A stretch of DNA of 12,108 bases from a virus (lineage: Duplodnaviria; Heunggongvirae; Uroviricota; Caudoviricetes). The stretch is taken from positions 1 through 12,108 of the IMG/VR virus record IMGVR_UViG_2737471846_000027; one strand, given 5' to 3'. This document shows, one piece after another, positions 5,375 through 5,611 of the stretch (positions within the stretch are counted from its first letter, which is position 1; every line of letters starts with the position of its first letter). The notes beneath the pieces were generated by a model. It was given only the letters and a program-made list of their open reading frames with translations. It was not told where the DNA came from and searched no databases. A program made the position numbers and the translations under genes.

Positions 5375-5407
5375 AGTCAGAAATTCCTCTTTGACTTAAA
5401 AAATCAC

Positions 5408-5441
5408 AACTGGATGTTCATCCAGTTATGATTATAATCAT
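5408..5441 (-). promoter_or_regulatory. Capsid-operon promoter/operator region: perfect 14-bp palindrome ATGATTATAATCAT (contains TATAAT) and 8-4-8 inverted repeat AACTGGAT-GTTC-ATCCAGTT
   Basis: Both palindromes are read directly from the sequence at 5428–5441 and 5408–5427. They sit 35–65 bp upstream of the 68-aa ORF start, and the inverted repeat lies where a transcript from the TATAAT would begin. Confidence 0.45.
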
Positions 5442-5536
5442 GATTGCATTTTGCGCAATAAAATTGAGTTGTGTTGCAAATTATGAAATGATTTACAGCA
5501 ACAGTAGTCACCATGCTGTTAACCTCGTAAGCAAAA

Positions 5537-5575
5537 GCCCGATAAGCTTCCTCCTGTACTTATCGGGCTTTTTTT
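5537..5575 (+). terminator. Strong hairpin terminator: 10-bp perfect stem GCCCGATAAG/CTTATCGGGC, 12-nt CU-rich loop, T7 tail on the plus strand (possibly bidirectional)
   Basis: Stem, loop and T-run are read directly from the sequence. There is an A4 run on the 5' side. No plus-strand ORF lies upstream. Confidence 0.55.
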
Positions 5576-5581
5576 GGGTAC

Positions 5582-5603
5582 AAAAAGCCGGATTTTCTCC
5601 GGC
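5582..5603 (-). terminator. Rho-independent terminator ending the primase-SSB operon
   Basis: On the minus strand, a GCCGGA/TCCGGC hairpin is followed by T5, 9 nt after the SSB stop. It is a near-copy of the 3670–3696 terminator. Confidence 0.6.
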
Positions 5604-5611
5604 CTGTGCGT

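Follow-up and report, generated by a model that had tools for sequence, protein, structure and literature searches.

Genomic context of the capsid unit

The window, by which we mean the whole 12,108-nt stretch of DNA analysed, belongs to a phage satellite of E. coli that is inserted beside phoQ and is of the type known as Gram-negative phage-inducible chromosomal islands (PICIs). As markers of a PICI we used an integrase gene (int), alpA, a primase or replicase gene, a mostly unidirectional gene order, a length of 10-20 kb, cos, and a late zone in which phage late genes have been captured, following the defining features in PMC10111431 and PMC6092414. The window carries int, alpA, genes for a primase, SSB, a capsid protein of the lambda E type, a decoration protein of the D type and a Nu1-like small terminase (terS), and two cos-like copies (Table 1). 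The gene order is the same in the nearest annotated genomes and agrees with the four-zone layout published for such islands (PMC10111431, PMC6092414). The islands EcCICFT073 and EcCIEDL933 (Fillol-Salom 2018, 2019) are likewise unidirectional and have the same succession of int, alpA, primase, late capsid zone, Nu1-like terS/Rpp and lambda-type cos. The Nu1-like terS is inverted in some strains.

As every gene of the island lies on the minus strand, we read the features of the capsid junction on that strand, from position 5611 down to 5375. This gap of 237 bp separates the SSB gene from the three genes of the capsid unit, the first of which encodes a 68-aa protein with homologues confined to E. 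coli and Salmonella.

Table 1. Genes and sequence features of the island, in the order in which the minus strand is read
Feature	Position	Strand	Remarks
Integrase ORF	10879-12108	-	Annotated as tyrosine integrase in the nearest genome
AlpA-like excisionase/regulator	10326-10514	-	
D5-type primase (D5_N)	6617-8371	-	
SSB gene	5612-6022	-	Last of the replication module; Pfam SSB, E = 3.5e-15; annotated as SSB in related genomes
T1, intrinsic terminator CAGGCCGGAGAAAATCCGGCTTTTT	about 5582-5606	-	8-bp GC-rich stem, GAAAA loop, U5 tail
T2 hairpin	5533-5572	both	Perfect 14-nt arms (5533-5546 and 5559-5572), 12-nt purine-rich loop, -22.1 kcal/mol
Variable spacer	5496-5532	both	Sequence of two main types in E. 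coli; 45% identity to Salmonella
Conserved non-coding block, 100 nt	5396-5495	both	86% identity between E. coli and Salmonella; holds the -35, the -10 palindrome and the LexA box (all predicted)
Predicted -35 hexamer TTGCGC	5453-5458	-	Spaced 16 bp from the -10; most relatives have TTGCAC or TTGCAT
Perfect 14-bp palindrome ATGATTATAATCAT	5428-5441	both	TATAAT at 5431-5436 (-), mirror TATAAT at 5433-5438 (+)
I1, extended 14-bp hairpin	5402-5433	-	Upper stem is the predicted LexA box; U6 run at 5396-5401; flagged by the terminator scan
Predicted LexA box AACTGGATGAACATCCAGTT	5408-5427	both	CTG-N10-CAG core; perfect 8-4-8 repeat AACTGGAT-N4-ATCCAGTT
68-aa gene (phrog_3255)	5168-5374	-	First of the capsid unit; function unassigned; its stop codon overlaps the start of the capsid gene
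Major capsid protein, lambda gpE family	4113-5168	-	Pfam Phage_cap_E, E = 3.4e-51
Head decoration protein, lambda gpD family	3766-4101	-	Pfam HDPD, E = 2.1e-17
Twin of T1, hairpin CAGGCCGGAGAAATCCGGCTTTTT	3672-3695	-	After the decoration gene, ends the capsid unit; directly upstream of the lambda-type cos site
Nu1-like small terminase (terS)	2950-3504	-	Past the twin terminator and the lambda-type cos site

Terminators at the module boundaries

T1 starts 6 nt past the stop codon of the SSB gene and folds with -14.2 kcal/mol. It has a GC-rich stem-loop followed directly by a run of U, 3' of a stop codon, as is required of an intrinsic terminator. Its twin at the far end of the capsid unit differs from it in one loop base and was the top match of the terminator scan (3675-3694), and two matches of this kind were found in 0 of 200 shuffles. 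The reuse of this hairpin after the decoration gene, which had been pointed out in the sequence-only reading, was thereby borne out and turned out to be more general, as hairpins of the T1 type occur two to three times per island at the boundaries of cassettes and the same T1 hairpin follows ECs_1589 in the Sakai Sp7 island, ahead of a different late module.

The surroundings of T1 vary among related islands. Homology to other islands stops at about 5603, i.e. at T1; in some islands PerC-family and other small genes precede it, and in Nissle-type islands a cos-like insert of 170 nt lies between T1 and T2. The Sp7 island occupies the same chromosomal site and has the early genes and T1, after which comes an HK97-type late module without the conserved 100-nt block. 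The break of homology at T1, the varied neighbours, the exchanged late module of Sp7 and the recurrence of the hairpin therefore mark T1 as a shared module-boundary terminator. T1 is also the junction for module exchange, with T2 and everything below it belonging to the E-type capsid module.

The second hairpin, T2, is two-sided: in all of the 89 E. coli-type copies its tail is U4 on the coding strand and the longer U6-7 on the plus strand. The loop invariably shows GAGG in the coding-strand sequence, or CCUC in that of the plus strand. This holds in Salmonella too, where the equivalent hairpin has an unrelated GC-rich stem, keeps a GAGGAGG loop and is devoid of a U tail on the coding strand. 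As T2 suits the plus strand better and its Salmonella equivalent has no coding-strand U tail, the earlier proposal of a terminator pair between the SSB and capsid operons was only half right.

Conserved non-coding block and predicted promoter

The comparison drew on 96 loci, of which 92 are E. coli-type copies found in genomes or on viral contigs and four are from Salmonella. Of 5426 complete E. coli genomes, 621 (about 11%) contain the intergenic region; the laboratory strains Nissle 1917 and ATCC 25922 carry the element, and CFT073 was not among its 60 best matches. The 100-nt block is more alike between E. coli and Salmonella than are the genes that it precedes, the identities of which were 57% (68-aa gene), 70% (capsid gene) and 63% (decoration gene), or the flanking non-coding stretches (42-51%). 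Strong conservation continues for about 60 nt upstream of the -35, beyond the extent of a normal promoter.

A coding role did not account for this conservation. A micro-ORF of 36 aa lies over the block, but its start codons are not conserved, and the variable columns are spread 14/11/11 over the codon positions with no coding-like frame on either strand. No Rfam family matched in the region. Among known candidates, the O157 small RNA Esr41 is located on SpLE1 and not on this island, and the text on EcOnc had no link to this region. The Sakai transcript data could not serve as a guide, the Sp7 island of that strain being without the block. A scan of the genome collection with the 16-nt pattern TTTCATRATTTGCAAC returned matches at chance level only.

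Within the block lies a predicted sigma-70 promoter, TTGCGC-16-TATAAT, with six of six consensus positions in the -10 and three of six (TTG) in the -35. Of the 51 distinct E. coli variants, 48 have kept TATAAT, as has Salmonella; the TTGC of the -35 is invariant, and the 16-bp spacer is free of indels across 54 variants. The consensus scan, which asks for four of six positions in each hexamer, did not call this promoter because of its -35, and it is therefore presented as a prediction. Between the two hexamers there is also a conserved inverted repeat, ATTGCA-N5-TGCAAT.

The TATAAT palindrome and the adjacent 8-4-8 inverted repeat, both described earlier from the sequence, were found exactly as such. 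The proposal that the capsid genes form a transcription unit of their own is likewise supported, by T1 after the SSB gene, by the conserved promoter-like element with its perfect -10 and by the twin terminator at the end. Taken singly, neither the palindrome nor the repeat is significant: 0.75 perfect 14-bp palindromes are expected per window and four are present, and 0.16 repeats of the 8-4-8 kind are expected. We regard both as real since they are adjacent, are conserved across the 621 E. coli genomes and Salmonella, and since the repeat matches a LexA box. The palindrome also agrees with about 13 of 19 positions of the Fur consensus, a likeness given little weight because the sequence is AT-rich.

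The 8-4-8 repeat as a predicted LexA box

The core of the repeat, CTG-N10-CAG, is the one that characterises LexA boxes of E. coli. Its arms, CTGGAT and ATCCAG, and their spacing agree exactly with the ruvA box CGCTGGATATCTATCCAGCA, which has been validated, and the site is also similar to the cho and uvrB boxes (PMC3009722, Table 4). We scored it with a matrix built from the 18 validated boxes of that table. The predicted box reached 20.2 bits, within the range of 6.6-27.6 bits that the known boxes obtain when each is left out in turn (recA 20.4, sulA 20.0, ruvA 18.4). It is the best site of the window and lies above the maximum of 200 shuffled windows (17.2 bits). The chance rate at this score is about 1e-7 per position, which amounts to about 0.001 sites per window or about 0.5-2 per 5-Mb genome. 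The heterology-type index of 7.0 is in the middle of the range of the known boxes (0.6-12.6). The sequence of the site itself was not found in the literature searched.

The box has been kept across the comparative set, with scores of 16-22 bits in 94 of the 96 loci, Salmonella included. In these 94 loci CTG and CAG are invariant and changes fall on the outer and central positions of low information, so that the variation follows the LexA motif. The two exceptions are the divergent island ETEC1734, which is without the repeat, and one contig with an insertion of 1 nt. Four distinct variants (five loci) have ATACAG in place of ATCCAG; this change breaks a G-C pair of the hairpin I1, in which the box is embedded, and shifts the site towards the LexA consensus, with a score of 21.6 bits.

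The predicted box lies 3 bp downstream of the conserved TATAAT and spans about -3 to +17 of the predicted promoter. Given the predicted start near 5423-5426, this is a typical position for a repressor. In view of this match to a LexA binding site, the SOS response probably turns the capsid genes on directly. From these sequence data we infer LexA binding, the start site and SOS induction, and consider it fairly probable that the capsid unit is repressed by host LexA and derepressed by DNA damage.

The sequence-only reading had instead assigned the palindrome and the repeat to a dedicated regulator, either a late activator of the helper phage or an island factor, for which the 68-aa protein and AlpA would be the candidates. 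The 100-nt block does travel with the capsid module and its conservation exceeds that of the genes, as the operators of such a regulator might. Some support also comes from the outer pair of the palindrome (5441/5428), which is complementary in 35 of 51 variants and changes in concert, being A-T in 23 and C-G in 12, in the manner of co-evolving half-sites; the same pair is non-complementary in the other 16, however, and nothing else favours this assignment. The repeat fits LexA far beyond chance, and it has no second copy in the island. Neither the block nor the 68-aa gene or its protein occurs in any of 50,697 phage records, and a helper-phage origin was set aside on this ground.

The sites of known late activators were looked for as well. 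The late promoters controlled by P2 Ogr and P4 Delta have a TGT-N12-ACA dyad centred near -55. This dyad was not found, there being no TGT at 5460-5500 on the coding strand, and the pattern of a Q site is absent from the region, as is the AlpA element GGGACG-N5-GGTA. For the 68-aa protein, the predicted structure (mean pLDDT 74, two helices) suggests an N-terminal strand-helix pattern that is loosely ribbon-helix-helix-like, but its best fold match in the PDB is not significant (E = 2.6) and the protein was set aside as a ribbon-helix-helix autoregulator. Control by a dedicated regulator thus seems quite unlikely to us, and the repeat is better read as a box for host LexA.

Hairpin I1 and its possible role in RNA

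LexA alone does not suffice for the whole element, because the repeat is longer than the box needs and because the lower stem and the U6 run of I1 look RNA-like. The folding energy of I1 is -19.8 kcal/mol (z = -5.9) for the minus strand and -13.9 kcal/mol for the plus strand. Its pairing is conserved, 95.6% of the cells of the alignment being paired and four pairs having changed on both sides; in the lower stem there are compensatory substitutions, among them C-G to U-A and GGA/UCC. G-U cells number 24 on the coding strand and five on the other, and a run of U5-7 follows the hairpin in all variants. I1 thus combines the stable stem, the U run and the conserved pairing by which a terminator is recognised.

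These properties would suit an RNA switch in which I1 is a promoter-proximal terminator or attenuator overcome by a processive antiterminator, either AlpA of the island or Q of the helper. The inverted repeat ATTGCA-N5-TGCAAT, moreover, occupies the place that the AlpA and Q sites have in their own systems. The geometry of the hairpin speaks against such a switch. The 5' arm of I1 takes up the stretch from the last three bases of the -10 up to the predicted start, so that a transcript from the own promoter cannot form the full stem and retains about 6-8 bp of it, 4 nt from the U run. The whole hairpin can form only in transcripts that start upstream of 5433, and it therefore looks like a third terminator and not like an attenuator of its own promoter; no upstream promoter was evident in the variable spacer by promoter scan or alignment.

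The overlap with the -10 also argues against an antitermination cassette of the AlpA or Q type. The AlpA element consists of GGGACG-N5-GGTA between the -35 and the -10 (PMC7969949), and the spacer found here, AAAATGCAATCATGAT, does not contain it. The ATACAG variants, in addition, weaken the stem of I1. Altogether, an antiterminated RNA switch appears very unlikely. The likeness to lambda PR'-qut-tR' and P. aeruginosa PalpB-ABE-tB extends to a strong, constitutive-looking -10, to a conserved element in the spacer between the two hexamers and to a hairpin resembling a terminator before the first late gene; the arrangement here differs from both in the overlap of the hairpin with the -10 and in the missing AlpA-element motif.

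A possible divergent small RNA

As TATAAT can be read on both strands of the palindrome, the -10 may be bidirectional and may also drive a plus-strand small RNA of about 130 nt (about 5445-5572) that would end at T2. Such an RNA would be an addition to the LexA control and compatible with it. Its 5' portion would come from the conserved 50 nt that precede the capsid -35, and both directions of transcription would be under LexA repression. The conservation that reaches about 60 nt past a normal promoter agrees with this, as do the longer U tail of T2 on the plus strand and the CCUC in its loop, which stays on that strand even where the stem is unrelated. A 6-bp helix (5455-5460/5472-5477) is paired on the plus strand in 98.8% of the cells, and it owes this to U-G and G-U pairs, which on the coding strand would turn into C-A mismatches. 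The covariation of this helix is, however, not above that of shuffles, 79 of 500 of which reach the observed value. Further, the plus-strand -35 is poor (CTGGAT), the Salmonella equivalent of T2 comes without a proper U tail, and the search of Rfam gave no family to which the RNA could belong. As the statistics of the helix are no better than those of shuffles, the small RNA is kept as an add-on only, and we think its existence doubtful.

In a wider version of the same idea, the 100-nt block would be a dual-use bidirectional switch. One and the same stretch of 20 bp would be the LexA operator as DNA and, as RNA, the upper stem of a terminator that keeps AlpA-driven early transcripts out of the capsid unit. 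The palindromic -10 would, under LexA control, also give rise to the plus-strand RNA of about 130 nt, which would end at T2 and have an anti-Shine-Dalgarno CCUC loop. We consider this combined function rather unlikely.

Proposed regulation of the capsid unit

What we observed are the elements in the sequence, the degree to which they are conserved and the agreement of the repeat with LexA sites; with host LexA as the predicted repressor, they suggest the following course of events. Transcripts of the replication operon would stop at T1, with T2 and the long hairpin I1 as back-ups. About 150 bp further on, transcription would start from the predicted sigma-70 promoter, near 5423-5426 on the minus strand, and would yield a transcript of 1.75 kb that covers the 68-aa gene, the lambda E-like capsid gene and the D-like decoration gene and ends at the twin terminator. 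In an undamaged cell, a LexA dimer on the 20-bp box would block initiation. Upon DNA damage, RecA would be activated and LexA would cleave itself, and the capsid unit would be derepressed by the same damage that induces lambdoid helper prophages. In this way the SOS signal of the host would govern the late unit, with excision and replication being under the island activator AlpA, and T1, T2 and I1 may shield the late unit from AlpA-driven early transcription.

Some observations count against the LexA reading. In EcCICFT073 the expression of alpA is reported to be independent of SOS (PMC6092414), this being a different promoter. The box is missing in ETEC1734, the -35 has only half of its consensus positions, and the reading does not account for the strong conservation of about 60 nt upstream of the -35.

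If the reading is correct, Gram-negative PICIs would have two keys, with AlpA and the helper for excision and replication and SOS for the capsid unit, and antibiotics that damage DNA would directly activate capsid genes of the satellite, whether or not a helper phage is present. The idea is easy to test, because the element is found in about one in nine complete E. coli genomes, among them the two strains named above.

Comparison with known systems

The use of LexA by mobile elements is already known, and the present capsid unit would be a further case. The Gram-negative PICI literature examined describes AlpA-dependent induction; neither a LexA site nor a late promoter of its own is mentioned there, nor that LexA controls the late zone. 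The closest likeness that we considered is operon I of the SaPIs (Staphylococcus aureus pathogenicity islands), an operon for packaging and capsid morphogenesis which holds capsid-remodelling genes and terS and is regulated by LexA (PMC3152322), a control credited to Ubeda 2007. In both elements a capsid-related late unit of a satellite would be under host LexA and not under the master regulator of the island, which for the present island is a prediction. The two differ in that the SaPIs have Gram-positive hosts, whereas the present island has a Gram-negative one with a different LexA motif, CTG-N10-CAG. They also differ in content, operon I having the remodelling genes cp1/cp2 where the present unit has full homologues of lambda E and D, and in the position of terS, which is part of operon I whereas here the Nu1-like terS lies outside the unit, beyond the terminator and cos. 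If the LexA reading holds, the logic of SaPI operon I would have been reached with unrelated genes.

In E. coli itself, the SOS promoters of ruvAB, cho and uvrB have the same architecture as that predicted here, with a 20-bp operator overlapping the core promoter and the start site. The island differs from them in that its box is part of a longer hairpin (14 bp, followed by a U run) and has a palindromic -10 beside it, and the genes that follow are structural genes of a mobile element instead of repair genes.

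Accessory cassettes, cos copies and the Sakai Sp7 relative

The island annotated as 'prophage Sp7' in Escherichia coli O157 Sakai shares int, primase, SSB, pchE and T1 (the intrinsic terminator after SSB) with islands of the window type. The late module of Sakai Sp7 is of the HK97 type, with capsid, protease, portal, adaptors and terminases, and because of this gene content the element looks like a capsid-forming PICI. Near this late module, no site was found with the LexA matrix, built from 18 known boxes. In Sakai and in the related island L002, the same T1-type hairpin stands after every one of the small accessory cassettes, namely pchE (PerC family) and the 225-nt gene. 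It has the look of a terminator that recurs where cassettes meet, and it may be a recombination point as well.

The Nu1-like terS of the window is flanked on either side by 76-nt inverted repeats, which are two lambda-type cos copies with 82% complementarity. JNE151685 (L003), the closest genome, has terS annotated opposite in strand to the capsid genes, and the stretch bounded by the two cos copies therefore appears to be inverted in some strains relative to others. The Nissle 1917 island (L009 1760-1935) carries a 170-nt insert between T1 and the neighbouring hairpin T2, starting TTTTTACGGGTCCT...ACGGGGCGG, that resembles cosQ/cosN. Two cos sites have been reported for EcCICFT073, which agrees with this.

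After the decoration gene, at 3696-3765(-), comes a short remnant ORF (MAEPRAMTATSIAY). The window island appears to have a deletion here, since a 137-aa gene occupies the place in L001 and L002, both related islands. The 314-aa ORF at 9324-10268(-) matches phage families (phrog_1743, labelled 'transcriptional repressor') over its last ~60 residues only, and related islands have annotated short Icd-like cell-division inhibitors at its position.

LexA-like sites and repeats around alpA

The LexA matrix gave two further matches in the window, both in the int-alpA intergenic region upstream of the regulator gene alpA and both conserved in position in L001-L003 and Sakai Sp7. Expression of alpA in EcCICFT073 is reported to be SOS-independent (PMC6092414).

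Coordinates of the island features
Feature	Position	Strand	Remarks
'Prophage Sp7' island, Sakai	L212 34712-49001		same phoQ/roxA site
T1-type hairpins	L002 6486-6506; 6850-6870		after cassettes
T1-type hairpins	L212 42052-42072; 42406-42426		after cassettes
cos copy	2728-2803	+	CGGGGCGGCGACCTCGCGGTTTTT; one arm
cos copy	3593-3668	-	CGGGGCGGCGACCTCGCGGTTTTT; other arm
LexA-like site TACTGGATATGCGAACAGAT	one of 10720-10739 and 10831-10850		13.4 bits; proper CTG-N10-CAG core
LexA-like site TGCTGGTTTTTTATACACTA	the other of these two		17.5 bits; CAC in one arm, not CAG
Perfect 14-bp palindromes	1677; 9610; 10847		besides that of the predicted capsid promoter

The window holds four perfect 14-bp palindromes where 0.75 would be expected. 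Of these, AGTATGCGCATACT at 10847 overlaps the weaker of the two LexA-like sites upstream of alpA. Just downstream of int, at 10780-10835(-), lie five ACAAC/GCAACAA-like repeats with a period of ~10-11 nt (acaacgtgcaacaatgagcaacaatgtggaacaactacgaacaag). They are candidate integrase sites of the arm type or candidate AlpA sites. One occurrence of GCAACACAAC is also present at ~5467-5476, in the conserved non-coding block holding the predicted capsid promoter.
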